64,000 nucleotides of DNA from Bacilli bacterium (GTDB taxonomy: Bacteria; Bacillota_I; Bacilli_A; RF39; UBA660). This document shows, piece after piece, positions 12,287 through 55,602 of the stretch. Numbering within the stretch: the stretch's first letter is position 1; each line of letters starts with the position of its first letter. The notes under the pieces are model-generated. The model was not told the origin of the DNA, ran no database searches, and worked only from the letters and a program-made list of their open reading frames with translations. Both the position numbers and the translations under genes were made by a program. The stretch covers positions 12,650 to 76,649 of the forward strand of contig JAFQTN010000005.1 of assembly GCA_017409025.1 (NCBI GenBank). Reading direction: 5' to 3'.

Positions 12287-13210
12287 ATGAAGAAAATAAT
12301 AATCTTTATAACAGTATTAATTTTTATTCCTTTTTTTATTGTCATAATATACAATAAAAATTATAAAGAAATAGAATTAAAGTATATTAGTACTACTTAT
12401 ATAAGAGTGAAAAAATTAAAAGATGATACTATCAAAAAAATTCCTTTAGAAGAATATATTGTCGGAGTTTTAGCTGGAGAAATGCCTATAAGTTTTGAAT
12501 TAGAAGCATTAAAAGCCCAAGCTGTTGCATCTCGAAGTTATGCTTTAAAAAGAATTGAGTATAATAAAGATAAAGAATATGATGTCGTAGACAGCGTTAT
12601 GAATCAAGTATATTTAGATGAAGAACATTTAAAAGAAGCCTGGGGAATTAATTATGTTAAAAATATTAACAAATTAAGAACCGCAGTTAATGAAACCTTA
12701 GATGAATATTTAGAACATAACGGTTCCATCGCAGATGCATTATTTTTCTCAACTAGTAATGGTTATACCGAAGATAGTCAAAATATTTTTAATTTTGATT
12801 GTAATTATTTAAAAAGTGTAGAAAGCCCATGGGATAAAGATGTGTCTAGTGCATACAAATATCAAAAAGCAATGAAATTAACAGAATTTTATAAAAAAAT
12901 AAACATTCCATATAGTAAAAATTTAAATATTGAAATATTAAAAAGAAGTACTACTAACAGAATACTTCTTTTAAAAATAAATAATGTAGAATTTAAAGGA
13001 ACTGATCTATATAATAAATTATCTCTAAGATCTACTGACTTTGAAATAGAACTTCTTGGTGAAGAAGTAAAAATAACTACTAAAGGATATGGACATGGAG
13101 TAGGAATGAGTCAATATGGAGCGCTAGGTATGGCTCTAGAAGGATATAGTTATGAAGAAATATTAAAACACTATTATAAAGATACTGAAATAACAAAATT
13201 AAAAAATTAA
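12287..13210 (+). CDS. spoIID: Stage II sporulation protein D (lytic transglycosylase)
   Basis: SpoIID/LytB domain: EEYIVGVLAGEMP...EALKAQAVASRSYAL, and GHGVGMSQYGA. Confidence 0.9.
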   Translation: MKKIIIFITVLIFIPFFIVIIYNKNYKEIELKYISTTYIRVKKLKDDTIKKIPLEEYIVGVLAGEMPISFELEALKAQAVASRSYALKRIEYNKDKEYDVVDSVMNQVYLDEEHLKEAWGINYVKNINKLRTAVNETLDEYLEHNGSIADALFFSTSNGYTEDSQNIFNFDCNYLKSVESPWDKDVSSAYKYQKAMKLTEFYKKINIPYSKNLNIEILKRSTTNRILLLKINNVEFKGTDLYNKLSLRSTDFEIELLGEEVKITTKGYGHGVGMSQYGALGMALEGYSYEEILKHYYKDTEITKLKN

Positions 13211-27832: not shown

Positions 27833-28603
27833 ATGACTAACATAAGTGGAAAAGAAAATGAATACGAATTTGTAAAATATCTAAATGGAAAGAAGATATC
27901 AGAATTAAATCCTATGTTTAGGGGTTTTATAGATAAATTATTTCCTAATGAAACTAAAAATTCAACAATTAAATGTTGGAAAAATCACTACAAAGAGAAA
28001 GCAGATATATTTATTAAAATTAATGGATCAATGAAAGGCATAAGCATAAAGAAGGGAATAAAAAATTCAGTTCATGTAGAAAGAATATCGGATTTTATCC
28101 ATTTCTTAATAGAAAACAAAGTAGATAGAGAAGTGGTACTTGAATATTTAAAATATCAATATGCAGATGGTAGTACAAATGGCAAGGGAAATAAACGAAT
28201 ATCGGCGGAAGAATATAAAAAAGAAAATCAACACAATATTGATAAAATAAATCATGCTTTTAGAAACGAAAAGTTATTAAAAAGTGCTACAACTAGATTC
28301 ATTACTAAAGGAAAAAATTCAAACTATTATATTTCGGCTATAATTTATGGTGAAGTAAATGACTTTGTGTGGGCAACAAGAGAAGAAATAGAAAAAATAA
28401 TGTTATCAAAAAAAGATATTTATTCAAGTGCTGTACATTTTGGAGCAATGACATGCCAACCTAAAAATAGATGTTTAAACTATAATCCATTATATGAAAA
28501 AGATAGGTATTGTGTTCAAATCAAATGGTATAACATATTTGATGATATTATTGAGTATATGAACAAAACTGTTGACAAAGAATTTCGAAAACAAGAAGTT
28601 TAA
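27833..28603 (+). CDS. Hypothetical protein, possible PD-(D/E)xK nuclease (MspI/HpaII-like pattern)
   Basis: KADIFIKINGSMKGISIKKG gives D-x12-S-x-K, reminiscent of the MspI D...N-x-K site. AGGAGG RBS and its own terminator hairpin. No methyltransferase is nearby. Confidence 0.3.
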   Translation: MTNISGKENEYEFVKYLNGKKISELNPMFRGFIDKLFPNETKNSTIKCWKNHYKEKADIFIKINGSMKGISIKKGIKNSVHVERISDFIHFLIENKVDREVVLEYLKYQYADGSTNGKGNKRISAEEYKKENQHNIDKINHAFRNEKLLKSATTRFITKGKNSNYYISAIIYGEVNDFVWATREEIEKIMLSKKDIYSSAVHFGAMTCQPKNRCLNYNPLYEKDRYCVQIKWYNIFDDIIEYMNKTVDKEFRKQEV

Positions 28604-28642
28604 TGTAGAACTTCTTTTTAAATTGTAACAATAATCTATATA

Positions 28643-28671
28643 TCTTATCAAGCAGACCACATGGTTCGATT
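28643..28671 (+). pseudogene. tRNA-Gly fragment (anticodon-stem to T-loop), plus-strand orientation
   Basis: tcttatcaAGCaGACCACaTGGTTCGATT versus the intact tRNA-Gly sequence gccttccaAGCTGACCACGTGGGTTCGATT, about 22 of 30 identical. Confidence 0.45.
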
Positions 28672-28725
28672 AAATGACAAAGAAAAACTCACACCACTAA
28701 TCAAGTGTGTGAGTATTAATCTAAA

Positions 28726-28756
28726 TGGAGCGACTGCAGGTGATTTCCCGCACCCC
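28726..28756 (-). other. tRNA-3'-end-like remnant, copy A (...TCGCTCCA), with adjacent minus-strand terminator hairpin 28688-28713
   Basis: TGGAGCGACTGCAGGTGATTTCCCGCACCCC matches copy B at 29 of 31 positions. It shares only TGGAGCG with the intact tRNA-Gly. No 5' acceptor complement was found. Confidence 0.4.
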
Positions 28757-28792
28757 TTAAAAAAATAAAACCCTTATAAATAAAGGGGAAAC

Positions 28793-28809
28793 GGGTTAGA
28801 TTCCCATCA
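28793..28809 (+). pseudogene. tRNA-Gly T-arm/acceptor fragment, plus-strand orientation
   Basis: GGGTTAGATTCCCATCA versus GGGTTCGATTCCCATCA of the intact tRNA-Gly, 16 of 17 identical. Confidence 0.4.
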
Positions 28810-28918
28810 AAGGTTAACACTTTTTTGAACAAAATATTAATAAAAGTTATTTAAACTAATAATTAATAATGTAAATTTTATTTATTTTTAATCAACTTAT
28901 TTGAGATATTGAACAAAC

Positions 28919-29012
28919 CTACAAATTTACCACAAAACGACCACAAAAAGTCTACAAACAGACCACAATTTGTTTTATAAGAACCTCAAAATAATCTCAA
29001 AAAATCTCACAA
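28919..29012 (+). repeat. 11-bp phased C(C/T)ACAA / CTCAAA hexamer array upstream of the module-1 promoter
   Basis: Hexamers start at 28919, 28930, 28941, 28952, 28963, 28985, 28996 and 29007. All sit on one 11-bp lattice with a single empty slot at 28974. Confidence 0.8.
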
Positions 29013-29037
29013 AATTTCTTCGATCACCAACGTTAAT

Positions 29038-29066
29038 GTTTCAAACAAAGGTTTTTATGATATAAT
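29038..29066 (+). promoter_or_regulatory. Module-1 promoter (extended -10 TGATATAAT)
   Basis: TGaTATAAT at 29058-29066 and GTTTCA at the -35 distance. The block TTAATGTT(T/A)CAAACAA is conserved with module 2. Confidence 0.45.
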
Positions 29067-29090
29067 TTAGTTGAAAGGAGTGAATAAAAA

Positions 29091-29708
29091 GTGGAGAATC
29101 AAAAAAATAATAAAGGAGTAATAGCATTACTTATTGTAATAATTGTTATATTATCAGTTTTATGTGTACTATTTGCTACAGGAACAATAACTTTAAAATC
29201 TAATGACGTAGATAATAGTGGAACAAACGAAAATATTAATGATAATAACCAAACTAATGAAGAAAATAATGATGAAGAAAAAGAATCTAATTGGGTTGAT
29301 TATTTATTATCTCGTCATATACTTGATGCAAAGGTTTCAAGGATTAGAAGTAAAGACCTTGGAGATACAGAAGATTTTAGTAAAACAGAAACTATCACAA
29401 TGGATGAAGTTAACGAAATTTTATCAAATTTTAAAAATAGCAAATTAACTAAAACTTGGAGTCAAGGTAGAGGTGGACCAGATAAAGACCATTTAACTAT
29501 TGCTTACGAAAATAATGATCAAAAATATGAATTTGAAATTTATTATGGAACTATTGTTGTTGATAAATTAGACGATGAATTAAAAAACATTTTAGAACAA
29601 AATAAATATGATGAAAAAAATGCTGAATATAAAAATATGGAAGGTTCATTTTATTTCTATAGCATAGATAACTATAATGAAACTATTTTTGATAAATATT
29701 TTAATTAA
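29091..29708 (+). CDS. Module 1 gene A: type-II membrane-anchored protein, N/D-rich linker, unknown ectodomain
   Basis: GTG start after AAAGGAG. The first ~33 aa are nearly identical to 30588..31229, and the rest is unrelated. Confidence 0.7.
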   Translation: MENQKNNKGVIALLIVIIVILSVLCVLFATGTITLKSNDVDNSGTNENINDNNQTNEENNDEEKESNWVDYLLSRHILDAKVSRIRSKDLGDTEDFSKTETITMDEVNEILSNFKNSKLTKTWSQGRGGPDKDHLTIAYENNDQKYEFEIYYGTIVVDKLDDELKNILEQNKYDEKNAEYKNMEGSFYFYSIDNYNETIFDKYFN

Positions 29709-29810
29709 TTAGGTTTAACGAGAGAATTGCATCTCTCTTTTTATTTTTTACTGGATATTTACCAAATTATGCGGTATTGTTTGTGTGAAGTTAATATATA
29801 ACTTCAGGAG

Positions 29811-30185
29811 GTGAATATAATCAAAATAATATTTGTAGAAAGATTGTTGTTTGATAATGATGTAAAAGAATCATTAGAAAGGTCGTTTAAAAGAAGTGGA
29901 ATAAAGTTTACATATTATGATGGATATATTTTAAGATTTGAAAAAACTAATGTATATTCAATCACACCACATAGACTAGTTTTTAGTAAGAATGAATACA
30001 ATTTACTGGTGTTATATTATGATGAATATCATGAGACAGATGAACTATTCTTTGTAGATGGAGAAAAGTATACATTACAAGGGATTAAGAGATATGTTAG
30101 AAATTATTTTATAAGTAAAACTTCAAATAAACCTACAAAAGATAGTACAAAGAATAATACAAAAAGACCTAAGATAGGTCTATAG
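29811..30185 (+). CDS. Module 1 gene B: conserved 124-aa protein with a basic K/T/N-rich tail, unknown function
   Basis: GTG start after AGGAGG. 117 of 124 aa are identical to 31323..31697. Confidence 0.7.
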   Translation: MNIIKIIFVERLLFDNDVKESLERSFKRSGIKFTYYDGYILRFEKTNVYSITPHRLVFSKNEYNLLVLYYDEYHETDELFFVDGEKYTLQGIKRYVRNYFISKTSNKPTKDSTKNNTKRPKIGL

Positions 30186-30244
30186 ATGAAGTAGGGTTTG
30201 GGAATAAAAAAACTAGTGCTATTACACACTAGATCAATTACACA

Positions 30245-30275
30245 TGGAGCGACTGCTGGTGATTTCCCGAACCCC
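30245..30275 (-). other. tRNA-3'-end-like remnant, copy B, with adjacent hairpin 30213-30232
   Basis: TGGAGCGACTGCTGGTGATTTCCCGAACCCC. It is preceded by the same hairpin and spacer found beside the intact tRNA-Gly. Confidence 0.4.
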
Positions 30276-30436
30276 TTAAATGCTCAAATCCAAAGAAATA
30301 AAGTGTTCTATTAGTTTAAAAATTATATATTTTTAATATATGTATATAAAAGTATACCTATATTTTTGAAAAAACAACAGATAAAAATTTTAAATTTTTT
30401 GTTTTTAATATATTACATTTGATGTTATAGATAAAC

Positions 30437-30528
30437 CTACAATCAGTCAACAAAAAATTTAAAATAAATTGCAAATGAGTTGTAAATTAAGTCACAATAA
30501 ATAGTACAAAATTTCAACAATTATCAAA
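30437..30528 (+). repeat. Weaker ~11-bp phased (N)CA(A/C)AA array upstream of the module-2 promoter
   Basis: CTACAA at 30437, CAACAA at 30448, TGCAAA at 30470, TGTAAA at 30481, TCACAA at 30492, GTACAA at 30504, CAACAA at 30515. The extended -10 TGGTATAAT lies at 30555-30563. Confidence 0.45.
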
Positions 30529-30587
30529 TTTAATGTTACAAACAATATAATTAATGGTATAATTTAAATGAAAGGAGTGAATAAAAA

Positions 30588-31229
30588 GTGGAGAATCAAA
30601 AAAATAATAAAGGAGTCATAGCATTACTAATTGTAATCATTGTTATATTATCAACATTATGTATTTTATTTGCTACAGGAACTATTAGTTTTAATTCAAA
30701 TAAAGCTAATGATGATGAAATAAATGAAAATATCAATGATACCAACGATGATAATAATGTTCAAACAAGTAATATTAAAGTTGAAGATATCAAAGAAATA
30801 TTCGAAGTAGCATACAACTATTATGAATTGCCAACAGTTTATTGCGGAAAATCTGATCATACAATCGTAAATATTTATGGAAAAGATAGATATGCATCAA
30901 CTGAATTTACTAATTACGATGCATTGCTTAATTCGTTGAAAAAGTATATGAGTGTAGAAGTAATATCTGGTAAAACTCCTTGGGCGGCTACAACAAAAGA
31001 GTATTATTTAGAACAAGATGGTAAATTATATTGTGAAGAAACATATAAAGGTTATATGTATGGTCATGGAAATATAGAAGTAGAAATAACTTCACAAACA
31101 GAAAATAAAGTTATTTGTGTTGCTACTATGGAGTTAACCGACCCATCCGAAAATAAAACTTATGATAAAGTAAACTTAGTGTTAGAAAATATAGATGGTA
31201 ATTGGATTATTACATCTTATAAAAAATAA
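30588..31229 (+). CDS. Module 2 gene A: type-II membrane-anchored protein, N/D-rich linker, different unknown ectodomain
   Basis: Same GTG, RBS and anchor as module 1. The ectodomain contains Cys residues and ends in DGNWIITSYKK. Confidence 0.7.
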   Translation: MENQKNNKGVIALLIVIIVILSTLCILFATGTISFNSNKANDDEINENINDTNDDNNVQTSNIKVEDIKEIFEVAYNYYELPTVYCGKSDHTIVNIYGKDRYASTEFTNYDALLNSLKKYMSVEVISGKTPWAATTKEYYLEQDGKLYCEETYKGYMYGHGNIEVEITSQTENKVICVATMELTDPSENKTYDKVNLVLENIDGNWIITSYKK

Positions 31230-31322
31230 AATTAAGGAAAAACCTTAATTTTTTTTATTTAGCTGGATATTTATAAAATTATGCGGTATTGTTTGTGTGA
31301 AGTTAATATATAACTTCAGGAG

Positions 31323-31697
31323 GTGAATATAATCAAAATAATATTTGTAGAAAGATTGTTGTTTGATGGTGAGGTTAAAGAATCATTAGAAAGGTCGTTT
31401 AAAAGAAGTGGAATAAAGGTTTCATATTATGATGGATATATTCTAGGCTTTGAAAAAACTAATGTATATTCAATCACACCACATAGACTAGTTTTTAGTA
31501 AGAATGAATACAATTTACTGGTGTTATATTATGATGAATATCATGAGACAGATGAACTATTCCTTGTAGATGAAGAAAAGTATACATTACAAGGGATTAA
31601 GAGATATGTTAGAAATTATTTTATTAGTAAAACTTCAAATAAACCTACAAAAGATAGTACAAAGAATAATACAAAAAGACCTAAGATAGGTCTATAG
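31323..31697 (+). CDS. Module 2 gene B: conserved 124-aa protein (paralog of 29811..30185)
   Basis: Near-identical paralog with identical upstream leader and RBS. Confidence 0.7.
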   Translation: MNIIKIIFVERLLFDGEVKESLERSFKRSGIKVSYYDGYILGFEKTNVYSITPHRLVFSKNEYNLLVLYYDEYHETDELFLVDEEKYTLQGIKRYVRNYFISKTSNKPTKDSTKNNTKRPKIGL

Positions 31698-31716
31698 ATA
31701 GAGTAGGGTTTGGGAA

Positions 31717-31744
31717 TAAAAAAACTAGTGCTATTACACACTAG
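31717..31744 (-). terminator. Rho-independent terminator of tRNA-Gly
   Basis: On the minus strand, the CTAGTG...CACTAG hairpin is followed by a T-run (plus-strand A-run at 31717-31724). Confidence 0.6.
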
Positions 31745-31756
31745 ATCAATTACATA

Positions 31757-31830
31757 TGGAGCGGATGATGGGAATCGAACCCACGTGGTCAGCTTGGAAG
31801 GCTGAAGTTCTACCATTAAACTACATCCGC
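31757..31830 (-). tRNA. tRNA-Gly (anticodon UCC)
   Basis: The reverse complement GCGGATGTAGTTTAATGGTAGAACTTCAGCCTTCCAAGCTGACCACGTGGGTTCGATTCCCATCATCCGCTCCA folds as a cloverleaf. Anticodon loop is CTTCCAA and the CCA end is encoded. Confidence 0.95.
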
Positions 31831-31850
31831 AAATCAAGTAGGCAATATAA

Positions 31851-31879
31851 ATTATAGTATATTCAGCCTTCCTTGTCAA
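31851..31879 (-). promoter_or_regulatory. Consensus sigma-A promoter for tRNA-Gly
   Basis: On the minus strand: TTGACA, 17 nt, TATAAT, about 20 nt upstream of the tRNA 5' end. Confidence 0.6.
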
Positions 31880-39596: not shown

Positions 39597-40658
39597 GTGA
39601 TAAATAGATTAGAAGCAATACAAAATAGATATAATGAAATATCTAAAGAATTATCATCTCCTGAAGTAATAAATGATATAAAGAAAATGACAGAATTGTC
39701 AAAAGAACAAAGAAGATTATCACAAACTGTTGAAATATATGAAAAATATAAAGGAGTATTATCTGATATTGAAGCAGCCAAAGAAATGCTTGAAGATAAA
39801 GAAATGCAAGAGTTTGCCAAAGAAGAAATATCTTCACTAACTTCTATCAAAGAAGACTTAGAAAAAGAACTTGAAGTATTATTATTACCACATGATCCTA
39901 ACGATGAAAAAAATGTTATCGTAGAAATTCGTGGTGCAGCCGGTGGAGATGAAGCAAATATATTTGCTGGGGACTTATTTGATATGTATACTCATTATGC
40001 TAATAACTTTGGTTGGAAAATAGAAACACTAAACGAAGAAGCAGGGACTGCTGGTGGTTTCTCTCAAATAGAATTCATGATAAAAGGTGAAGGTGCTTAC
40101 TCAAAATTAAAATATGAGTCAGGTGCCCACAGAGTACAAAGAGTTCCAGAAACTGAATCACAAGGAAGAGTTCATACATCAACAGCAACAGTATTAGTAA
40201 TGCCTGAAGCAGAGGAATTTGACTATGAATTAGATGAAAGCGAAGTAAGAATAGATATAACAAGAAGTAGTGGATGTGGTGGACAAGGAGTAAACACTAC
40301 AGATTCAGCTGTAAGATTAACTCACTTACCAACAGGTATTATCGTATACTCTCAAACTGAAAGAAGCCAAATCAAAAACAAAGAAAAAGCTTTTAAAATC
40401 TTAAAAACAAGACTATATGATTTAAAACTAAGAGAACAAGAAGAAGCAAACGCCGCAGAAAGAAAAAATAAAATTGGAACTGGTGATAGATCAGAAAAAA
40501 TAAGAACTTATAACTATCCACAAAACAGAGTAACAGACCACAGAATTGGTTTTACATCAATGAATTTAGATAGAATTATGACTGGCGACCTAGGAGTTAT
40601 AATTGAAGCTCTAATAAATGAAAATCAAAGAATAGAATTAGAAAATCATGAAATATAA
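39597..40658 (+). CDS. prfA: Peptide chain release factor 1
   Basis: SGCGGQGVNT (GGQ) motif and a PxT-type tripeptide region PET in RVQRVPETESQGRVHTS (canonical RF1 is PAT/PVT). GTG start. Confidence 0.95.
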   Translation: MINRLEAIQNRYNEISKELSSPEVINDIKKMTELSKEQRRLSQTVEIYEKYKGVLSDIEAAKEMLEDKEMQEFAKEEISSLTSIKEDLEKELEVLLLPHDPNDEKNVIVEIRGAAGGDEANIFAGDLFDMYTHYANNFGWKIETLNEEAGTAGGFSQIEFMIKGEGAYSKLKYESGAHRVQRVPETESQGRVHTSTATVLVMPEAEEFDYELDESEVRIDITRSSGCGGQGVNTTDSAVRLTHLPTGIIVYSQTERSQIKNKEKAFKILKTRLYDLKLREQEEANAAERKNKIGTGDRSEKIRTYNYPQNRVTDHRIGFTSMNLDRIMTGDLGVIIEALINENQRIELENHEI

Positions 40659-41400
40659 TAAAAGTGACTTAGATTATTTAAAAAAATATATTAATGAAAA
40701 CAAACTAGATAATAATTATTATAATGAATGCCTAAAAGAATTAGAAAAAGGAAAACCTATACAATATATAATAGGTAATGTAGATTTTTATGGTAATATT
40801 ATCAAAGTTAACCCTTCAGTTCTAATACCTAGATTTGAAACAGAACTTCTAGTAGACCTTACAATAAAAAAAATAAAAAATATCTTTAAAGATAAACAAA
40901 TAGATATTCTAGATCTAGGTACAGGTAGTGGCTGTATTGCTATAACATTAAAAAAAGAAATTAATTCTAATGTAGATGCCTTAGATATATCTTCTGAAGC
41001 ATTAATGGTAGCTAAAACTAATGCCAAAGAAAACAATGTAGAAATTAATTTTATCCATAAAGATATGACTATATATAAAGAAAAAAAATACGATGTAATT
41101 ATTTCTAATCCACCATATATAAGATACAATGAAGAAATAATGGATATTGTAAAGAATAATGAACCACACTTAGCTTTATATGCCAATGATGATGGCCTAT
41201 ATTTCTATAAAGAAATAATAAAAAATATTCCTAACATAACTAAAGACAAATATTTAGTATGCTTTGAAATAGGAGAGTCACAATCAACAGTTATTGTTGA
41301 TATAGCAAAAGAATATTTAAAAGATGTAAACATTTCTGTTCATAAAGACTATTCAGATAAAGATAGATTTATATTTATAACTAATGAGCCAAATAATTAA
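40648..41400 (+). CDS. prmC: Release-factor glutamine N5-methyltransferase
   Basis: DLGTGSGCIA SAM motif and NPPY. Overlaps the prfA stop. Confidence 0.9.
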   Translation: MKYNKSDLDYLKKYINENKLDNNYYNECLKELEKGKPIQYIIGNVDFYGNIIKVNPSVLIPRFETELLVDLTIKKIKNIFKDKQIDILDLGTGSGCIAITLKKEINSNVDALDISSEALMVAKTNAKENNVEINFIHKDMTIYKEKKYDVIISNPPYIRYNEEIMDIVKNNEPHLALYANDDGLYFYKEIIKNIPNITKDKYLVCFEIGESQSTVIVDIAKEYLKDVNISVHKDYSDKDRFIFITNEPNN

Positions 41401-41460: not shown

Positions 41461-41976
41461 ATGAAAAGAAAAATATTCTTGTTAGTATTAGGACTAATCT
41501 TAATAGCAATATATTCAGTAAGTGAAACAGAATTATCTATACCAGATTCATCTATTAGATTAAGAGTAATACCTAATAGTAATAATTCTATGGATATAAA
41601 TATTAAAGAACAAGTAAAAGACTATCTAGAAACAGATGTCTATACACTATTAAAAGAAACAAATGATATAGATTCGGCAAGAAATATAATTAATAATAAT
41701 ATTCCTAAAATAGAAACAAATATAGACAATATCTTTAAAGATAATAATTATAATATTCCTTATGAAGTAAATTTTGGTTATAATTATTTTCCAGAAAAAA
41801 CATTTGCTGGAGAAAATTATCAAGAAGGGTATTATGAATCATTAGTAATATATATCGGAGATGCAAAAGGAGATAATTGGTGGTGTGTCTTGTTTCCAAA
41901 TTTTTGCCTTGTAGATACAGAAAAAGATACAGAATATAAATCTTATTTCAAAGAGTTATTTAATAAAATATTCTAA
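41461..41976 (+). CDS. spoIIR: Stage II sporulation protein R
   Basis: IRLRVIPNSN and GDNWWCVLFP signature motifs. Confidence 0.85.
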   Translation: MKRKIFLLVLGLILIAIYSVSETELSIPDSSIRLRVIPNSNNSMDINIKEQVKDYLETDVYTLLKETNDIDSARNIINNNIPKIETNIDNIFKDNNYNIPYEVNFGYNYFPEKTFAGENYQEGYYESLVIYIGDAKGDNWWCVLFPNFCLVDTEKDTEYKSYFKELFNKIF

Positions 41977-42593: not shown

Positions 42594-42670
42594 GGCGGAT
42601 TTGGTGAAGTGGTTAACACATTGGATTGTGGTTCCAACATACGTGGGTTCGATTCCCACAATCCGTCCCA
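42594..42670 (+). tRNA. tRNA-His (anticodon GUG) with encoded G(-1)
   Basis: G-GCGGATT...AATCCGT-C-CCA. The anticodon loop is TTGTGGT. The extra 5' G opposite discriminator C is the tRNA-His hallmark. Confidence 0.95.
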
Positions 42671-42710
42671 GATAGAATATAAAGAAGCAGGAATGAGCTT
42701 CTTTTTTCAT
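42665..42710 (+). repeat. 46-nt direct repeat, copy 1 (tRNA-His 3' tip plus terminator hairpin)
   Basis: GTCCCAGATAGAATATAAAGAAGCAGGAATGAGCTTCTTTTTTCAT versus 45676-45721. About 40 of 46 positions are identical, and the differences lie mostly in the hairpin loop. Confidence 0.85.
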
Positions 42711-42777
42711 ATATTTAAGAAGGTATGGAAAAGGATAACAAATTATGGTATTATATTATTCATTAACAGGGGGAAAT

Positions 42778-43746
42778 ATGGAAAATTTTAAGGTATTAAC
42801 ATACGAAGAAGAAAAGAAACTTACAGTAGATGAAAGAAAAATATATTATATAAGATTAAAAGAATATTTATCTAGTTTAAAATATTCTTTACCTAAAGAA
42901 AAGTATTTAACAATTTGTGAAATATTAAACAAAAAAGTAGTAAGAACTATAGTTGATAAAATTAAAGGATATGATTTATTCATAGAGAATCAGAGTATAA
43001 TTCCAACTAGGCCAGTAATCTATGCATCTTCTCACCAAGATTTTAATGACCATTTTAATGTTGTATTATCTATACCAACTCATATGATTATCTTAAATTC
43101 TAGTAATGTCCCTAGTATAATTAAATTCGTCATGGGGATACACGGTATTGAGTATGTTGACAGAAATGATTCACAAAGTAGATTTGAATCTAAAATGCAT
43201 CTAATGGAATATTTATCCAAAGGTAAAAGTATTGTTGTGTTTCCGGAAGCAACATATAATTGCTCTCCAAATAAATTAATACTTCCATTACATAGTGGAG
43301 TAATTGATATAGCAAAAAAAATGCAAGCACCAATAGTACCACTAGTTCAGGAATATGATTTTGATAATTCTAGATTAGATGGAAAAAATAGAGTAAAAAG
43401 TTGTACAGTAAGATTTGGTATGCCAATATATGTTTCTTATGATGATAATATCCAAGCAAAGAAAGAAGAATTGCGAGATGCTATGGCAACTATTAGATAT
43501 AACTTGATTGAACAAAAAGGAATTTTTTCTAGAGAAGAAATTTCTAATGAAGAATATATTAGTTATCTATTATCAAGATTAGATACTATGGATTTAATGA
43601 AAGTAAATTATGAAATTGAAAAAAATACAATATATGGCGCAAGTGATGAATTTTATCAATATCACCCTATAAATGCAGTTCCATATAACGAAAAAGGTGA
43701 ATTATTGACAACTGGCCCTGTAAGAAAATTAACAATTGCAAAATAA
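42778..43746 (+). CDS. Lysophospholipid/glycerol-phosphate acyltransferase-family protein (PlsC-like)
   Basis: HQDFND (HX4D) and FPEATYN motifs. AGGGGGAAAT RBS before the ATG at 42778. Confidence 0.8.
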   Translation: MENFKVLTYEEEKKLTVDERKIYYIRLKEYLSSLKYSLPKEKYLTICEILNKKVVRTIVDKIKGYDLFIENQSIIPTRPVIYASSHQDFNDHFNVVLSIPTHMIILNSSNVPSIIKFVMGIHGIEYVDRNDSQSRFESKMHLMEYLSKGKSIVVFPEATYNCSPNKLILPLHSGVIDIAKKMQAPIVPLVQEYDFDNSRLDGKNRVKSCTVRFGMPIYVSYDDNIQAKKEELRDAMATIRYNLIEQKGIFSREEISNEEYISYLLSRLDTMDLMKVNYEIEKNTIYGASDEFYQYHPINAVPYNEKGELLTTGPVRKLTIAK

Positions 43747-43791
43747 ATAACCAGATTGAAAAACATTATGTTATAATTAACATAATAGGAA

Positions 43792-45579
43792 GTGGTTAGT
43801 GTGTATTCGATTTTTGAGTTATCGTTACCAATTTGTGCAATTGTTTTTTCATTGTTATTAATAATAGTTTATTTTACAAAACGAAGAATAAATTTGTTGG
43901 AAAACAAAATGTATTGTGTTATGCTAATTTGCGTTTTTATAGATAGTATTTTAGTAACACTAGAAAAAGGATTAGTTATTAACCAAGAATTATTAGAAAT
44001 TCCACAAATAACACAATTTGTCGTAGGAGTTCTAAATAAATTTGATGCAACTACCTTAATAGTACTTACTTCAGCTTTATTCTTATATATATACATAATA
44101 ACGATAAAACCTAACGATAAGCAATTTAAAAAGACATTATATGCAACAATATCTATGAATATAATTTTTATGATTTTGATATTTTTACTAGATGTACATT
44201 TGATTACAAATGGAGAAATTATTAGTATTTCAGGAACAGCTTTATATCCAACGTATATTGGATGTGGATTAAATATAATACAATCAATATTTATAACACT
44301 TTTAAATATTAAGAAAATAACAAAAAAACATATTCCATTAATAATTACAATATTAATGTTTATATTACTAATTTTAATCTTCACATTTAATCCATACATA
44401 ACAGTCATTTCAATATTGCTTACATTCGTAAACTATGTAATGTACTATACAATTGAAAATCCTGATATACAATTATTAGAAGAAATTCATAAATCAAAAG
44501 AAATATCAGATAGTGCAAATGAAGAAAAAACATTATTTTTATATAATATGACTCAAGAAATTAGAAATATTAATAAAAAGATAGATGATGATGCAGATAT
44601 TATTTTAGATAGTAAAGATTGGGAAGAAACTTATGAAAGTGCTAGAGATATTAAATCTTTAACATCTAAATTTAATTCAATGACTAATGAGATTTTAGAT
44701 ATTTCACAAATAAGTTCATCTAATATAAAGGTATATAACACCAAATATAACATCAAAAACCTTCTTAAACACATTGTAAATATCTACACGGATATTAGTA
44801 AAGATAAAGAATTAAAGTTTATTACTAATATTGATCATAATATACCAGAAATACTATATGGAGATTCAATAGAATTAAAAGAAATACTAACAATAATTTT
44901 AAATAACAGTACTAAATATACAGAAAAAGGATACATTGAATTTAACGTTAATACAATTATAAAAAATGATATATGTAGATTAATAATTACAATTGAAGAT
45001 TCAGGAACTGGTATTAGTAGTGAAAATATTAATAAAATAAAAATAGCTAAAAAATCCTTATCTAAAGCAAATGAATTAATTACTTTAATGAATGGTACGA
45101 TGATGATATCATCAGATTATGGCAAAGGCACAAAAATTAAAATAATATTAGATCAAAAAATGGAAATAATCGAAAATAAAGAAGTATCAAAATATGAGAA
45201 CATATTTAATAATGTAAAAATACTTGCCATTGATGATTTGGAGTCTGGACTTAAAATAATTGATAAGCTGTTAAAAGATACAAATATTGAACTAGACAAA
45301 GCTATAAATGGTAAAGATAGTATAAATAAAATAAGAATAAATAAATACGATATTATATTACTGGATGAAGAATTATCACAAATAAGTGGAATAGAGTTAA
45401 TCAAAAAAATTAAAGAAATCAGAAATTTTAATACACCTATAATTTTGTTAACTAAAGATAATAGTTATGAATATAATGAAGAACATTTAAAATTAGGATT
45501 TAATGATTATATTTTAAAACCACTAAAAAAAGATAATTTATTAGCTAAAATTAATAAATATACAAAAAAAGGCGACTAG
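43792..45579 (+). CDS. Membrane hybrid sensor kinase/response-regulator-like protein with degenerate H-box
   Basis: About 6-7 N-terminal TM segments. The H-box reads FLYNMTQEIRN, with Q at the His position. N-box NNSTKYT, G1 EDSGTGI. The receiver domain has DD, LLD, T and KP residues. Confidence 0.8.
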   Translation: MVSVYSIFELSLPICAIVFSLLLIIVYFTKRRINLLENKMYCVMLICVFIDSILVTLEKGLVINQELLEIPQITQFVVGVLNKFDATTLIVLTSALFLYIYIITIKPNDKQFKKTLYATISMNIIFMILIFLLDVHLITNGEIISISGTALYPTYIGCGLNIIQSIFITLLNIKKITKKHIPLIITILMFILLILIFTFNPYITVISILLTFVNYVMYYTIENPDIQLLEEIHKSKEISDSANEEKTLFLYNMTQEIRNINKKIDDDADIILDSKDWEETYESARDIKSLTSKFNSMTNEILDISQISSSNIKVYNTKYNIKNLLKHIVNIYTDISKDKELKFITNIDHNIPEILYGDSIELKEILTIILNNSTKYTEKGYIEFNVNTIIKNDICRLIITIEDSGTGISSENINKIKIAKKSLSKANELITLMNGTMMISSDYGKGTKIKIILDQKMEIIENKEVSKYENIFNNVKILAIDDLESGLKIIDKLLKDTNIELDKAINGKDSINKIRINKYDIILLDEELSQISGIELIKKIKEIRNFNTPIILLTKDNSYEYNEEHLKLGFNDYILKPLKKDNLLAKINKYTKKGD

Positions 45580-45604
45580 TATTACGTTTAAAATCCAAAA
45601 ACAC

Positions 45605-45721
45605 TTGAATAAGAAGCAAAACAGAGTTATAATTACATTAACGAATCGATATCTTTGTAGATGGTTCTAATACTGGTCCCAGATAGAATATTAAGAAGCA
45701 AAAAAATGCTTCTTTTTTCAT
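45605..45721 (+). pseudogene. Decayed tRNA-His-like locus: intact promoter, homologous leader, about 31 nt of degenerate body, conserved 3' tip and terminator
   Basis: TTGAAT, 17 nt, TATAAT at 45605-45633. The leader TACATTAACGAA resembles TACAAACGTA. GATGGTTCTAATAC resembles GTGGGTTCGATTCC. It ends with copy 2 of the 46-nt repeat (45676-45721). Confidence 0.45.
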
Positions 45722-45752: not shown

Positions 45753-47093
45753 TTATTTATTCTTTAAATAATTAACAACTTCAATTAATTTCATGCCATT
45801 AGATCCTTTGACTAAGATAGTATCTCCATCTTTAAGAATACTATCGATATCTTGCAGTAATTGCCCATTACTCTCAAAATAATAACATTCAGTATTATTA
45901 TTTTTCACAACCTCATAAGTATATTTTGATAATTTACCTACAGTAATTAATAAATCTATATTATTTTCAATAATAATATTTCCAATTTCCTTATGAATAT
46001 TCTCTCCATATTCATCAAGTTCTAATATATCAGCAAAAATAAACACTTTTCTACCATTAACTTTGCCAAGTAATTCTAAACCATTTTTAACAGAATCTAA
46101 ACTTGCATTATATGTATCATCTATAATATTAATACTATCAGTCTTAATTAATTCTAATCTATGTGGAGTTAAAGTAAATGATTTTAATGAATTACTTATT
46201 TCTTCACTAGATATTCCTAGTTTTGTTCCTACTGCATAAGCAAATAATGCATTATATATAAATGCTTTACTACCAACAGGTAATTCTATATATTGATTAT
46301 TTATATAAAAATTACTAGCAAAAACCTTATCTTGAATTTCTTTAGCTATATAATCACTTTCGTTTTCAATTCCTACAGTAATTAAATTATTATATTTAAC
46401 AGTTCTTAACATATCATTATCATTATTAATAATTAAAATACCATCATCCATTCCATCTAGTATTTCTAATTTAGCTTTAAGAATATTTTCTCTACTACCA
46501 AGATTACCAATATGAGCAGTCCCAATATTAGTAATAACTGCAATTGTTGGCCTAACTATATTTGATAAAATATGTAGTTCTCCAAAATGGTTCATTCCCA
46601 TTTCAACTACCAAAGCATCATGATCATTAAGTTCTAATATCGTCAAAGGAACACCAATATGGTTGTTTAAATTTCCCTTAGTAGATAAAACTCTATATTT
46701 AGATTTTAAAACTGAATATATAATATCTTTAACAGAAGTTTTTCCAACACTACCAGTAACAGCTATAACAGGTATATCATATAAACTTCTTTTATACTTA
46801 GCTAACTCTTGTAATGAGCTAATCGTATTATCCACTAAGATAATATTTTTATCTCTATAAGTATCATCTATTTTGGTATCATTATCTAATAAACAAAGAC
46901 TAGCACCCTTAGAAAATGCTTCTTTATAAAAATTATTTCCATTAAAAGTATCTCCTTTAATACCTACATAAATATCTCCTTCATTTAATTTTCTAGTATC
47001 AGTACAAAAATTAATACATTCTAAATCTAAATTTTCTATATTAGAAAATAATTTTCCATTACATAAATTAATAATATCTCTAACGTATATCAT
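45753..47093 (-). CDS. murF: UDP-MurNAc-tripeptide--D-alanyl-D-alanine ligase
   Basis: Canonical-length (446 aa) Mur ligase with VTGSVGKTS, a TNIGTAHIGNLGS region, and DDTYNAS. Confidence 0.9.
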   Translation of the reverse strand: MIYVRDIINLCNGKLFSNIENLDLECINFCTDTRKLNEGDIYVGIKGDTFNGNNFYKEAFSKGASLCLLDNDTKIDDTYRDKNIILVDNTISSLQELAKYKRSLYDIPVIAVTGSVGKTSVKDIIYSVLKSKYRVLSTKGNLNNHIGVPLTILELNDHDALVVEMGMNHFGELHILSNIVRPTIAVITNIGTAHIGNLGSRENILKAKLEILDGMDDGILIINNDNDMLRTVKYNNLITVGIENESDYIAKEIQDKVFASNFYINNQYIELPVGSKAFIYNALFAYAVGTKLGISSEEISNSLKSFTLTPHRLELIKTDSINIIDDTYNASLDSVKNGLELLGKVNGRKVFIFADILELDEYGENIHKEIGNIIIENNIDLLITVGKLSKYTYEVVKNNNTECYYFESNGQLLQDIDSILKDGDTILVKGSNGMKLIEVVNYLKNK

Positions 47094-52094: not shown

Positions 52095-52838
52095 ATGAAA
52101 AAAAAGATAATGAATGTAAATATAAATTATTATTTCTCAAATATAAGTTCAGAAAAGACTATCGTTTTATTACATGGCTGGGGACAAAATATAGAAATGA
52201 TGAAACATATAGGTAATAAATATTTGAATGAATTTAACGTATTAATAATAGATCTTCCCGGTTTTGGAGAAAGTGATGAACCCCCATATTCATGGAGTAT
52301 ATATGAATATGTTGAATGTATCAAAAAACTAATTGACTATCTAAATATTGATAAAATTTTTTTAATTGGTCATTCTTTTGGTGGAAGAATATCTTTAATT
52401 TATGCATCTATTTATAAAGTAGAAAAACTAGTATGTCTAGCAAGCCCGTATTGTAAAGAAATAACTAAATTACCATTAAAAATAAGAATATATAAGAAAG
52501 TTAAAAAAATACCTAGGTTATCTTGGTTAGCCAATATAATGAAAAATCTAATAGGATCATCTGATTATAAAAATGCAAGTGATGTAATGAGAGGTATTCT
52601 AGTTAAATCTATTAACGTAGAAATGGAAGAATATATAAAAAAAATAAACTGTCCAACACTACTAGTATGGGGCACAAACGATACGGCTGTTCCAATAAAA
52701 AGAGCCTACGAATTAGAAAAACTAATAAAAGATTCAGCAGTAATCAAATATGAAGGTGCCTCCCATTATGCATATTTAGAAAGACTTAATAACCTAATTC
52801 CTGTATTAGATTCATTCTTTAATGTAAGGAGGCATTAA
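52095..52838 (+). CDS. Alpha/beta-fold hydrolase
   Basis: HGWGQN and the GHSFGG nucleophile elbow, with a C-terminal His. Confidence 0.8.
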   Translation: MKKKIMNVNINYYFSNISSEKTIVLLHGWGQNIEMMKHIGNKYLNEFNVLIIDLPGFGESDEPPYSWSIYEYVECIKKLIDYLNIDKIFLIGHSFGGRISLIYASIYKVEKLVCLASPYCKEITKLPLKIRIYKKVKKIPRLSWLANIMKNLIGSSDYKNASDVMRGILVKSINVEMEEYIKKINCPTLLVWGTNDTAVPIKRAYELEKLIKDSAVIKYEGASHYAYLERLNNLIPVLDSFFNVRRH

Positions 52839-54418
52839 TGAAAATTATAATTATTATTTTATCTTCTTTATTTTACTTAATGTTAGAACTCAAAAAAAAT
52901 ATCCATATGTTACAACAAAACTTCTACAACGAAAATAATAGATATCTAAAATGGGGAATAAAAAACATATCAAATATATTAGATTATAAAAGTATATTAA
53001 TTCTTATATTAAACTTAATAAATTTATTCTTCCAAAAAGAAATCCTATTATATGTAAATATTCTATATTTAGGACTATACTTATGTGAAAAGAAAAGAGA
53101 AAAAAATACTTACTATAAAATACCATTAAAATGTACAAAAAGAGTAAAAAGATTATATATAACTAATATAATATTATATTTATCATTAATAGCTATATAT
53201 AATCTTACTAAAAAGATATATTTATTTACTTTCATATATTCACTATATATATCTATATCTTTCTTAGTAGTATACTTATCAAATATTATCAATATTCCCA
53301 TAGAAAAAATAGTATTTAACCACTATAAAAATAAAGCAGTAAACAAATTAAGTAAACAAACTAATTTAGAAGTTATAGGAATAACAGGAAGCTATGGTAA
53401 AACAAGTAGCAAAAGTATTTTAAATGAAATTTTAAGTGTTAAATATAATCCTATAGCAACTCCCAAAAACTTTAATACTCAATATGGGTTAATAATCACA
53501 ATTAATAACTATATAAATAAATTTCATGATTTATTTATTGCAGAAATGGGTGCCTTCAAATTAGGTCGTATCAAAATATTATGTAATCTAGTAAAACCTA
53601 AATATGGTATCATTACAAGAATTGGTGATTCCCATTTAGAAACTTTCGGCAGTAGAGAAAACATTCAAAAAGGTAAGTTTGAACTTATTGAGTCTCTTCC
53701 TAGTGAAGGCCTTGCCATCTTAAATATGGATGACGAATATCAAGTAAACTATAAATTAAAAAATAAAAGCAACGTTAAATGGATTTCAATTGATAACAAA
53801 GAAGCAGATATCATAGCTAGTGATATTAAAATGGATGCAAATGGAATGAGTTTTAATGTATATTTTAAAGAAGATAATCTTAATCAAAGATTTTATACAA
53901 AATTATTAGGAACTTCTAATATCTATAACATCCTAGGAGCAATTACCCTAGCTTATCATAAAAATATGACTTTAGAAGAAATTGATATTGGAATAAGAAA
54001 AATTAAACCAGTTCCTCACAGACTAGAATTAAAGAAAAATAAAGACAACATAATCATTGATGATAGTTATAATTCTAATCCAATAGGATCTAAAATGGCC
54101 TTAGATGTATTAAGTTTAATGAACGGTATTAAAATAGTTGTTACCCCTGGAATGATAGAACTAGGAGATAAACAATATGAATTAAATAAAAAATTTGGAG
54201 AATATATTTCTAATGTAGCAAACTACGTTATTTTAGTAGGCCAAAAACAAACAAAACCAATCTTAGATGGTTTGAAAGAAAAGAAATATAAAGAAGAAAA
54301 TATCTTTATTATAAATGATGTAAGAGAAGCCTTCAAAATAATCGATGGAATAAATACGAAAGGAAAAAAATATATATTATTGGAAAACGATTTACCAGAC
54401 ATATTTAATGAAAATTAA
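52838..54418 (+). CDS. MurF-like Mur ligase with ~170-aa polytopic membrane N-terminal region
   Basis: About 4 hydrophobic segments (aa 1-160), then GITGSYGKTSSK, a TRIGDSHLETFGS region, and DDSYNSNP. The start overlaps the upstream stop (TAATG). Confidence 0.8.
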   Translation: MKIIIIILSSLFYLMLELKKNIHMLQQNFYNENNRYLKWGIKNISNILDYKSILILILNLINLFFQKEILLYVNILYLGLYLCEKKREKNTYYKIPLKCTKRVKRLYITNIILYLSLIAIYNLTKKIYLFTFIYSLYISISFLVVYLSNIINIPIEKIVFNHYKNKAVNKLSKQTNLEVIGITGSYGKTSSKSILNEILSVKYNPIATPKNFNTQYGLIITINNYINKFHDLFIAEMGAFKLGRIKILCNLVKPKYGIITRIGDSHLETFGSRENIQKGKFELIESLPSEGLAILNMDDEYQVNYKLKNKSNVKWISIDNKEADIIASDIKMDANGMSFNVYFKEDNLNQRFYTKLLGTSNIYNILGAITLAYHKNMTLEEIDIGIRKIKPVPHRLELKKNKDNIIIDDSYNSNPIGSKMALDVLSLMNGIKIVVTPGMIELGDKQYELNKKFGEYISNVANYVILVGQKQTKPILDGLKEKKYKEENIFIINDVREAFKIIDGINTKGKKYILLENDLPDIFNEN

Positions 54419-54432
54419 AGGGGTGTTCATAT

Positions 54433-55602
54433 ATGAAATTAAAAATTGGTGTTATCTTTGGTGGTAAAAGTGTAGAACATGAAGTAAGTATTATTTCTGC
54501 CATCCAAGCAATAAATAATATAGATAAAGATAAATACAATATTGTTCCTATATATATATCAAAAGAAAAAGAACTATATACTGGAAAAAACTTACTTAAA
54601 ATAGAAAACTATAAAGATTTACAAGAAATTAAAAAAGTTTCTAAAGCTGTAACTCTATGTAAAATTAATAATGAATTCTGCCTATTATCATTAACAGGAC
54701 TAAGAAAAGTAGTAGACAAAATAGATGTTGCTTTCCCAATAGTTCATGGTGCGGGAGTAGAAGATGGTTCATTAGCAGGTTATCTAGATACTATTGGCGT
54801 TCCTTATGTAGGAAGTCGAGTTCTAGGTTCAGCATTAGGGCAAGATAAAGTTATTCTAAAATATGTACTAAAAGCTAATGATATTCCAGTTACTGACTTT
54901 GTATGGTTTTATGATAGTGAATATCTAGTATCAAAAGACACATATTTAAAACAAATAAAAGAAATGGGTTATCCCGTAGTAGTAAAACCAGCATCTCTTG
55001 GTAGCAGTGTTGGTATAACCTATGTAAAAGATGAAGATTCTATTGATAAAGCTATCGAAGAAGCTTTTGAATATGATAGAAAAATTTTAGTAGAAAAGGC
55101 AGTTGACAATCTAGTAGAAGTTAACTGTAGCGTTCTGGGAAATTATCATCATCAAGAAGTAAGCATTCTAGAAGAAGTTATCAGTAGTAGCGATATTTTA
55201 ACTTACCAAGATAAATATATTGGTCATAGAAAAATGAAAGGTCCTTCTAAGGGAATGGTCAATACCGATAGAAGAATCCCTGCCAATATAGATGAATGTT
55301 TACAAAAAGAAATTAAAGATTTAAGTATATTAACATTTAAAGCCCTAAATCTTAGCGGAGTTTGCAGAATAGATTATCTAATCGATAGTAAGAAAAATAA
55401 AGTATATGTTAATGAACCTAATATTATTCCTGGTTCACTATCATTCTATCTATGGGAACCAATTGGTAAAAAATATCAAGAATTATTAGATGACTTAATA
55501 AAACAAGCAATAGATGAATATAAAATAAGTAACAAAAAAGTATCTCATTTTCAAACAAATATATTAGAAAATTTTGAAGGTACTAAAGGAATAAAAAAAT
55601 AA
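54433..55602 (+). CDS. ddl: D-alanine--D-alanine ligase family protein (long form, 389 aa)
   Basis: GVIFGGKSVEHEVS, HGAGVEDGSLAG, and an ATP-grasp core VVVKPASLGSSVG and NEPNIIPG. There is an insertion, GHRKMKGPSKGMVNTDRR. Confidence 0.88.
   Translation: MKLKIGVIFGGKSVEHEVSIISAIQAINNIDKDKYNIVPIYISKEKELYTGKNLLKIENYKDLQEIKKVSKAVTLCKINNEFCLLSLTGLRKVVDKIDVAFPIVHGAGVEDGSLAGYLDTIGVPYVGSRVLGSALGQDKVILKYVLKANDIPVTDFVWFYDSEYLVSKDTYLKQIKEMGYPVVVKPASLGSSVGITYVKDEDSIDKAIEEAFEYDRKILVEKAVDNLVEVNCSVLGNYHHQEVSILEEVISSSDILTYQDKYIGHRKMKGPSKGMVNTDRRIPANIDECLQKEIKDLSILTFKALNLSGVCRIDYLIDSKKNKVYVNEPNIIPGSLSFYLWEPIGKKYQELLDDLIKQAIDEYKISNKKVSHFQTNILENFEGTKGIKK

Follow-up and report, generated by a model that had tools for sequence, protein, structure and literature searches.

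Accretion arrays at the ends of tRNA genes (tDNAs), including members that lack a recombinase, are a kind of locus that is already known. In Dehalococcoides, for example, tandem islands bounded by repeats of the ssrA end are associated with the serine recombinase DsiB, and 15 of 31 islands have no integration module and were read as cis-mobilisable (McMurdie et al. 2011, PMC3146451). As a rule, tDNAs are described as sites that serine integrases do not use (PMC4383910). Large serine recombinases at the CCA end of an RNA gene are of interest because tDNAs are not their usual targets, the ssrA islands being the printed exception. Here we analyse a 64,000-nt stretch of DNA (the window), positions 12,650-76,649 of the forward strand of JAFQTN010000005.1, from the assembly GCA_017409025.1 of a Bacilli bacterium (RF39, UBA660). 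The host genome (G000) is 1.28 Mb in size with 26% GC, at an assembly completeness of 95.9%. The locus studied is the 28597-31879 region of the window, beside a gene for tRNA-Gly(UCC), and the array proper occupies 28726-31756. We consider it likely that this is an accretion array at the 3' end of tRNA-Gly(UCC), to which two non-autonomous cassettes of ~1.5 kb were added successively by site-specific recombination. What is unusual here is the very small size of the units, a joint at the CCA end, a 31-nt mimic of a tRNA end in place of a long repeat, and a probable tie to serine recombinases.

The array resembles the ssrA islands (McMurdie et al. 2011, PMC3146451) in having tandem units behind a tRNA-like gene, bounded there by repeats of that gene's 3' end and here by elements laid out like one. 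Further points of likeness are a large serine recombinase beside the RNA gene in autonomous members, the absence of an integration module from about half of the islands, which are read as cis-mobilisable units gathered by accretion, and a tRNA-Gly-like pseudo-tRNA within the integration module. However, the ssrA islands are ~10-20 kb long, whereas the units here measure 1.5 kb and hold two genes; the 20-bp exact repeat of the islands corresponds here to ~7 nt and a look-alike arm; the target is tRNA-Gly, plus the tmRNA gene elsewhere in the genome; and the host belongs to the gut Firmicutes with small genomes. In tDNA islands and tandem arrays of the Islander type (PMC4383910) and in the tycheposons of Prochlorococcus (bioRxiv 10.1101/2020.12.28.424599), an intact tDNA is followed by direct partial copies at unit ends, to which the 31-nt mimics here would correspond, with later insertions pushing older units outward and with remnants and extra partial tRNAs scattered about. 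Those systems carry an on-board tyrosine integrase, cross over inside the tRNA and restore its 3' end from the element, whereas in the present locus there is no on-board integrase, and the tRNA is not rebuilt by the element, with a serine recombinase as the candidate enzyme. The cassettes are also like cis-mobilisable elements gathered by accretion (PMC3146451), which are att-flanked units without integration or transfer genes that stand in tandem with autonomous elements or replace them, except that mobilisation in trans is only presumed here and the host genome has no candidate recombinase. Finally, integron cassettes are comparable as short units of one or two genes, each with a short structured site, that share one docking site and vary in cargo and order among relatives. 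Membership of the integrons was nevertheless rejected: the locus has no intI, attI or attC and no tyrosine recombinase nearby, the cassettes bring promoter-like sites and ribosome-binding sites of their own, and the docking site is the end of an RNA gene.

At the locus, tRNA genes were called with ARAGORN and Rfam, and protein families with Pfam, PHROGs, PADLOC and NCBIfam, with cut-offs applied. The docking gene is an intact tRNA-Gly(UCC) on the minus strand (31757-31830; ARAGORN; Rfam tRNA, 71 bits). As a preliminary description of this DNA had stated, it has its own consensus promoter and terminator: the sigma-70 promoter TTGACA-17-TATAAT (31851-31879, minus strand) matches at 12/12 positions, and a minus-strand hairpin (31744-31725) now ends the tRNA-Gly transcript. 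This hairpin is part of the right end of the second of two cassettes, which the first reading had overlooked. The interval 28726-31756 is a head-to-tail pair of two-gene cassettes of ~1.5 kb, spaced by 1512/1519 bp. Cassette 1 (28726-30244, plus strand) consists of a 31-nt element (e1), a terminator, a T-arm fragment, a promoter, the genes A205 (29091-29708, plus strand) and B (29811-30185, plus strand), and a terminator. Cassette 2 (30245-31756, plus strand; the 1512-nt spacing) consists of a second element (e2), a promoter, A213 (30588-31229, plus strand), B (31323-31697, plus strand) and a terminator, which abuts the CCA end of tRNA-Gly(UCC). The terminator scan placed one minus-strand hairpin at the right end of cassette 1, after e2 (30213-30232, identical to the one at 31725-31744), one in the flank after e1 (28690-28709), and one inside the left end of cassette 1, before e1 (28771-28787). 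Thus, the terminators previously reported beside both 31-nt copies are present (30232-30213 and 28709-28690); terminator-like sites number 7, against 0.7 expected from shuffles.

The two cassettes agree closely in some parts and not at all in others. The B proteins, each of 124 aa, are 94% identical (copy 2 carries the motif YDEYHE), and B is the conserved partner in the cassette. The B module as a whole is 95-100% identical between cassettes, the promoter and anchor region 79%, and no alignment was possible for the outer domain of A or for the region after e, which makes a mosaic pattern. A205 is an anchored protein with a variable outer domain, and A213 has an N-terminal membrane anchor in common with it and an unrelated outer domain, with no Pfam match above cut-off. 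Neither A, B nor the small open reading frames (ORFs) gave anything above the cut-offs in Pfam, PHROGs, PADLOC or NCBIfam, and a structure prediction for protein B was unusable, with a predicted local distance difference test score (pLDDT) of 44.

The junctions of the array define where recombination took place. The element e2, TGGAGCGACTGCTGGTGATTTCCCGAACCCC (30245-30275, minus strand), and e1 (28726-28756, minus strand) agree at 29/31 positions, as the preliminary description had indicated, and the repeat stretches to 37 nt at 95% identity. A search of the rest of the 1.28-Mb genome found no other copy. The right ends of the cassettes are identical up to ATTACA(C/T)A; beyond TGGAGCG, the sequence continues into either the body of the tRNA or the body of e. 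The three junctions have only ATGGAGCG in common and diverge after TGGAGCG, and therefore recombination joined the sequences within the final ~7 bases of the tRNA gene, CGCTCCA (TGGAGCG on the plus strand). Both e elements are in direct orientation and laid out like the 3' half of a tRNA, yet they share only 7-8 contiguous nt, ATGGAGCG, with tRNA-Gly.

The element had been described as like a tRNA 3' end, and the idea that it comes from a different tRNA was abandoned: all 31 tRNAs of the genome were aligned, none matched past GCTCCA, and e recurs between unrelated sequences elsewhere. In the metagenome contig L067, the pattern searched for (the first 25 nt of e2) was found exactly, and all 31 nt proved identical to e2; there, e adjoins tRNA-Gly(GCC) and the cargo is a helix-turn-helix (HTH) gene. 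The e of locus L045 has a single-base difference from e1 and another from e2; both L045 and L067 have unrelated sequence on either side. A search of Joint Genome Institute metagenomes with e returned one further copy only, that of L067. More broadly, an e of fixed 31-nt length with the same end motifs (TGGAGC...CGAACCCC) bounds cassettes in more than 10 loci while both flanks vary, and it is always beside terminators. No Rfam family matches e or the other tRNA-like pieces, and e has no T-arm pairing. With this recurrence and no matching tRNA, e is a discrete boundary module, neither the end of another tRNA nor a randomly decaying copy. Since it recurs in L045 and L067 amid different flanks, it fits an attachment arm borne by the element, and we read it as an attR-type scar in which the element's arm is joined to a core of ~7 nt. 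A practical annotation rule follows for these genomes, in which a 31-nt TGGAGC...CGAACCCC beside a terminator marks a cassette boundary.

Comparison with related genomes shows that occupancy of the tRNA end varies. The linkage between tex and tRNA-Gly is kept in those congeners where the tRNA was located, and the 3' side of the tRNA differs among them; synteny with G002 and G010 picks up to the left of window position ~23956, and B is present in 2 of 13 congeners. In three cases, the same flank directly adjoins the RNA gene in one genome and e in another. In G013, the tmRNA gene is followed by AGTTGTTTTTATCGAATACTTG..., and the same flank in the host genome follows the element eA, 2.8 kb from tmRNA. 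In G001, tRNA-Gly is followed by TTGAGATACAGTCTACGATAC..., and the same flank follows e in G012. In G010, G013 and G004, tRNA-Gly is followed by AA(A/G)(G/A)(G/A)TAAAATCGTCGCAC..., a head that follows e in locus L053. Such a swap is the classic mark of site-specific insertion. The order of cassettes behind tmRNA also differs between the host genome and G007. With different occupants in relatives and with flank swaps, the earlier proposal of a recombination hot spot at the tRNA-Gly 3' end that records serial insertion is supported.

The cassettes belong to a family that extends beyond this locus. Further copies of B and of the A anchor occur on contig C27 of the host genome, directly behind the tmRNA gene, where a sister array (C27:49543-55215, corresponding to L010 2044-7716) contains three units bounded by e: B104 together with A206, a module that has A168 and no B, and a pair of HTH-domain genes. 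The three e elements of this array start with TGGTG, like the end of tmRNA, are 31 nt long and end in ...C(C/G)AAACCC(C/G); a loose e pattern matches in the host genome only at the tRNA-Gly and tmRNA arrays. Among 5.8 billion proteins, 88 relatives of B were found, all from gut or digester metagenomes and none with a Pfam family, and no homologue of B was found in viral contigs. B is convergent with and adjacent to tRNA-Gly (GCC or UCC) in 7 of the 8 species genomes that have a B homologue, the eighth keeping a truncated TGGAGCAGTTGAGG remnant, and metagenome contigs show the same linkage. In all, the cassette family lies behind tRNA-Gly(GCC or UCC) in at least 10 other gut-bacterial genomes or contigs, and near-identical cassette ends adjoin tRNAs that differ in their acceptor and T arms. 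As a separate observation, the B-less module of the tmRNA array has a 40-nt near-palindrome, GTTCGACTCCCATCAG|TGGGGGAGTTGAGGGGATTCGAAC, in which a decayed tmRNA end faces an inverted T-arm fragment.

Based upon these junctions, a mechanism can be proposed. Insertion at the CGCTCCA joint would leave the tRNA intact, because the joint lies within its last ~7 bases. The incoming cassette would bring, at its tRNA-proximal end, its own terminator for the tRNA, and would leave at the distal end the 31-nt element, that is, an arm of its own, built along the lines of a tRNA 3' half (CCA end...CGAACCCC) and joined to the common core. To the left of e1 would then lie an older, displaced flank with a terminator, an inverted tRNA-Gly fragment and a restriction-enzyme-like gene. 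As cargo, each cassette carries a membrane-anchored protein whose outer domain is exchangeable, together with its small conserved partner. The enzyme is not encoded in the array; most likely it would be the large serine recombinase of mobilisable elements found at the same tRNA end in congeners, and it would have acted in trans or have since been lost.

The preliminary description had called the hot spot one without an integrase. For the window this holds, as Pfam shows no domain of an integrase, recombinase or transposase in any of its 59 ORFs of at least 110 aa, and a whole-genome scan of the host with PF00239 gave no match to a serine recombinase either. A whole-genome scan with PF00589 found matches on other contigs only, none on the window's contig, and four of these tyrosine recombinases are not of Xer size. 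In congeners, however, the same tRNA end has a large serine recombinase ~0.5 kb away. G013 and G007 each carry a small ORF and such a recombinase (639 and 611 aa, respectively) 0.1-0.5 kb from the tRNA-Gly(UCC) end, the recombinase itself at 0.4-0.5 kb; both have Resolvase and Recombinase domains, and that of G007 a zinc ribbon too. G011 has a Resolvase-domain match in a 632-aa frame at the same distance from the tRNA-Gly end and a broken Resolvase-domain frame behind its tmRNA gene, G010 has a short 160-aa frame near the site, and G004 a nearby recombinase in the opposite orientation. In G012, contig C17 opens with ...GCTCCA, after which come a head, one small ORF, a serine recombinase and a Mob_Pre (MobV) relaxase, then one cassette, e, an A/B cassette, e again, flank F (laid out like the flank that abuts e1 in the window), and a second small ORF and recombinase. 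No tyrosine integrase was seen in the stretches read beside arrays (Pfam lists and scanned ORFs). Tyrosine recombinases were undetected in one of five array-bearing genomes (G041), and the hits in the other four were not positioned relative to the loci. The array is probably tied to serine recombinases. Since a serine recombinase is absent from the window and the host genome and present at the site in congeners, the array in the window is at most a non-autonomous relative of the serine-recombinase elements. A different set of genes is found in the pig and animal gut contigs L053-L058, where an ISL3 transposase, a 189-aa resolvase and a 91-aa ORF (L053 9163-11126) lie between the joint of an A/B cassette and tRNA-Gly(UCC), and the 189-aa resolvase adjoins the tRNA end and an inverted tRNA fragment.

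Fragments of tRNA-Gly(UCC) on the plus strand had been noted 3 kb from the gene, and these are real (E-values were computed for a search space of 16 kb). The T-arm/acceptor fragment GGGTTAGATTCCCATCA (28793-28809) matches at 16/17 positions (E 0.005). In the fragment running from the anticodon stem to the T loop (28643-28671), positions 28649-28671 score 21/24 with one gap (E 0.07). A D-arm fragment at 28597-28614 (18/19, E 0.02) adds to those reported before. The three are collinear on a single strand inside 213 bp and correspond to tRNA positions 49-65, 35-58 and 9-27, respectively; the D arm and the anticodon-stem/T-loop piece form an inverted pseudo-tRNA-Gly(UCC) (28597-28671, plus strand) with a filler of 28-34 nt between them. 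The fragments hold anticodon-stem and variable-loop bases specific to tRNA-Gly(UCC), and therefore generic T-arm conservation is insufficient to account for them. Neither ARAGORN nor Rfam calls these plus-strand pieces as tRNAs, and thus they are a fragmentary tRNA relic. Another match to the tRNA-Gly acceptor, perfect at 15/15 positions and found on contig C35, was set aside as chance, as it lies inside a long ORF.

The orientation of the fragments had been taken to imply an inversion at the locus. This could not be upheld, because an inverted tRNA-Gly(UCC) fragment lies beyond the terminator in element heads of two other genomes. An inverted fragment from anticodon loop to T arm stands just past a CCA end and terminator at three places, namely in the element head of G012, beside the small resolvase in L053, and beside e1 and F in the window. 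Cassette ends in L063, L066 and G012 carry short inverted T-arm/acceptor pieces that agree with the target gene of their own locus, and the tmRNA arrays have a weaker inverted match, about 13/16 by eye. Judging from this recurrence, the inverted fragments are a regular architectural part of these elements, and no local inversion has to be assumed. Simple inversion models were also rejected for the plus-strand fragments since they did not reproduce the observed order of the pieces. A related feature is seen in locus L044 (G012:C17), where the leader of an operon of a small ORF and a serine recombinase has, at 66-96, ~28 nt that are complementary to the part of tRNA-Gly(UCC) running from its anticodon loop into the T stem; the pseudo-tRNA of the window sits at the equivalent position. 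A fragment of the L044 type might be regulatory or might be part of the site.

Between the pseudo-tRNA and e1 lies flank F (28672-28725, minus strand), composed of the hairpin at 28690-28709 and a spacer abutting e1. It is homologous to the flank after the distal e in L064, and its layout is the same as that of the flank abutting the real tRNA in G001 and e in G012. On these resemblances, we read flank F as an older flank that was displaced from the tRNA end; at the window's own joint of e1 and F, what was seen is the homology to the e/F flank of L064 and the G001-like layout. The older variable segment beside the array also includes orf256 (27833-28603, plus strand), a type II restriction-endonuclease-like orphan (PADLOC REase_II, E 8e-12) with no Pfam match. 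The ORFs flanking it have no methyltransferase domain, and the nearest one is of the PrmA/MTS type, 12 kb off at 40648-41400. An exact 13-mer, ATTAAATGACAAA, brackets orf256; it was not used, as by our own estimate a comparison of 5 kb with itself should yield an AT-rich exact 13-mer by chance.

The array could have formed in other ways. The plainest is a tandem duplication, in which an A-B pair beside tRNA-Gly was doubled by unequal homologous recombination, e is simply part of the repeat, the outer domain was swapped by gene conversion, and no site-specific step took place. The head-to-tail units at 1512/1519-nt spacing with right ends that are 95-100% identical are what such an event would give; moreover, there is no recombinase in the window and no serine recombinase in the genome, and exact-protein look-ups found no polymorphic version of the locus. 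Yet duplication leaves unexplained why the same family is found at tmRNA, tRNA-Gly(GCC) and tRNA-Gly(UCC) with the joint exactly at the CCA end, why e stands between unrelated sequences elsewhere, and how the flank swaps and the different cassette order of G007 arose. We therefore regard it as an unlikely account of the whole, though duplication may have been the last step only, with cassette 1 copied into cassette 2 within a site-specific family.

Alternatively, the units could be tyrosine-integrase islands that crossed over in the T loop or anticodon loop, leaving e as decayed, displaced 3' ends of tRNA-Gly and losing their integrases by deletion. This follows the textbook model of tDNA islands (PMC4383910), and both the four non-Xer-sized tyrosine recombinases on other contigs of the host genome and the overall tRNA-3'-half layout of e are in keeping with it. 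However, on such a model, with cassette 1 supplying the 3' end that cassette 2 later displaced, e2 should read as the present tRNA end, whereas it diverges right after TGGAGCG; a T-loop crossover was rejected for these cassettes because of this difference. The 29/31 agreement of e1 and e2 and the identity of e2 in another organism point to conservation rather than independent decay, and every e measures 31 nt, which exceeds a real T arm plus acceptor by 3-4 nt. Cassette ends that stay near-identical beside tRNAs with different acceptor and T arms, and the lack of a tyrosine integrase in the stretches read beside arrays, argue further against it, and we judge this origin quite improbable. It is also conceivable that the tRNA-like pieces are not scars at all and were instead selected as RNA or DNA signals, for processing, for termination or as antisense partners of the tRNA. 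The conservation of e at both ends, its constant position beside terminators, the outward promoter-like motif before many joints and the match of the inverted fragments to the local target gene would all suit such a role. Against it, there is no Rfam match and e lacks T-arm pairing, and the flank swaps and cassette order require DNA rearrangement anyway. As a replacement for insertion, signalling is thus very improbable, whereas as an added role it could coexist with site-specific accretion.

Several observations weigh against site-specific accretion itself. The identity between e and the tRNA is much shorter than in classical displaced tDNA fragments, and clear dyad symmetry was not established at the joints; some is seen by eye, with AGGGTTTGGGAA facing TTCCCGAACCCC around joint J2 (window ~30190-30290). 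The ends of the two cassettes are near-identical, and one could be a copy of the other made by homologous recombination, so that separate arrival of the two would be one possibility and copying another. Contigs with the same proteins, retrieved by exact-protein look-ups, show the same arrangement only, with neither an excised circle nor a variant that has an empty site or a different copy number. The tie of the A/B cassettes to serine recombinases consists of a common site and an unscored, by-eye likeness between one type of cassette end and the head of a recombinase element, and recombinase-bearing elements were not seen to contain an A/B cassette. Finally, present-day mobility is unsupported by a genome that is 95.9% complete and has no serine recombinase. 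As the host genome is without a candidate recombinase, the array may be a fixed relic.

The cassettes have other features that bear on their expression. An outward-facing promoter-like motif, TAGACT/TGGATA-17-TGnGATATCT/GGTATTGT, precedes gene B (window 29738-29810 and 31250-31322) and is conserved also at the right ends of cassettes in L010, L045, L062, L065 and L067. In B-less cassettes, the motif runs into the terminator and then into the next e or the antisense strand of the tRNA. The hairpin at the cassette end has a T run on the tRNA side only, and therefore transcripts from the cassette side may pass antisense across the tRNA. Upstream of the A genes (window 28900-29060 and 30430-30560; L010 3620-3740) are runs of hexamers of the CCACAA/CTCAAA type, which are conserved between tRNA-Gly and tmRNA cassettes and across genomes. 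Their conservation suggests an array for the binding of a shared regulator.

The remainder of the window provides some context. It encodes SpoIID, SpoIIR, Mur ligases, Ddl and MreB (12287-13210, 41461-41976, 45753-47093, 52838-55602), and therefore the host is a walled Firmicute and probably spore-forming. Public records list relatives as 'Mollicutes bacterium', as 'Candidatus Scybalousia' (a name that the NCBI taxonomy puts in Bacteroidales) or as 'Muribaculaceae'. A second insertion at a tRNA end is found at 42595-45721, where tRNA-His (42595-42670) is followed by a 3-kb insert of two genes, an acyltransferase and a hybrid kinase-like gene. This insert is bounded by a direct repeat of ~46 nt (42665-42710 and 45676-45721) made up of the last 6 nt of the tRNA and its terminator, a repeat structure different from that of e.

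Units of the kind described here would escape tools that require both a tyrosine integrase on board and a long repeat of the tDNA. We can suggest only tentatively, as something we rather doubt, that these loci amount to a working integron-like gene-capture system in small-genome gut Firmicutes, in which recombinase-less cassettes of surface domains would dock at the CCA ends of tRNA-Gly and tmRNA via the 31-nt mimic and would be shuffled in trans by the serine recombinases of MobV elements. More generally, small-genome gut Firmicutes may collect and reshuffle accessory genes, such as those for variable surface-anchored proteins, at the ends of RNA genes by means of tiny units.

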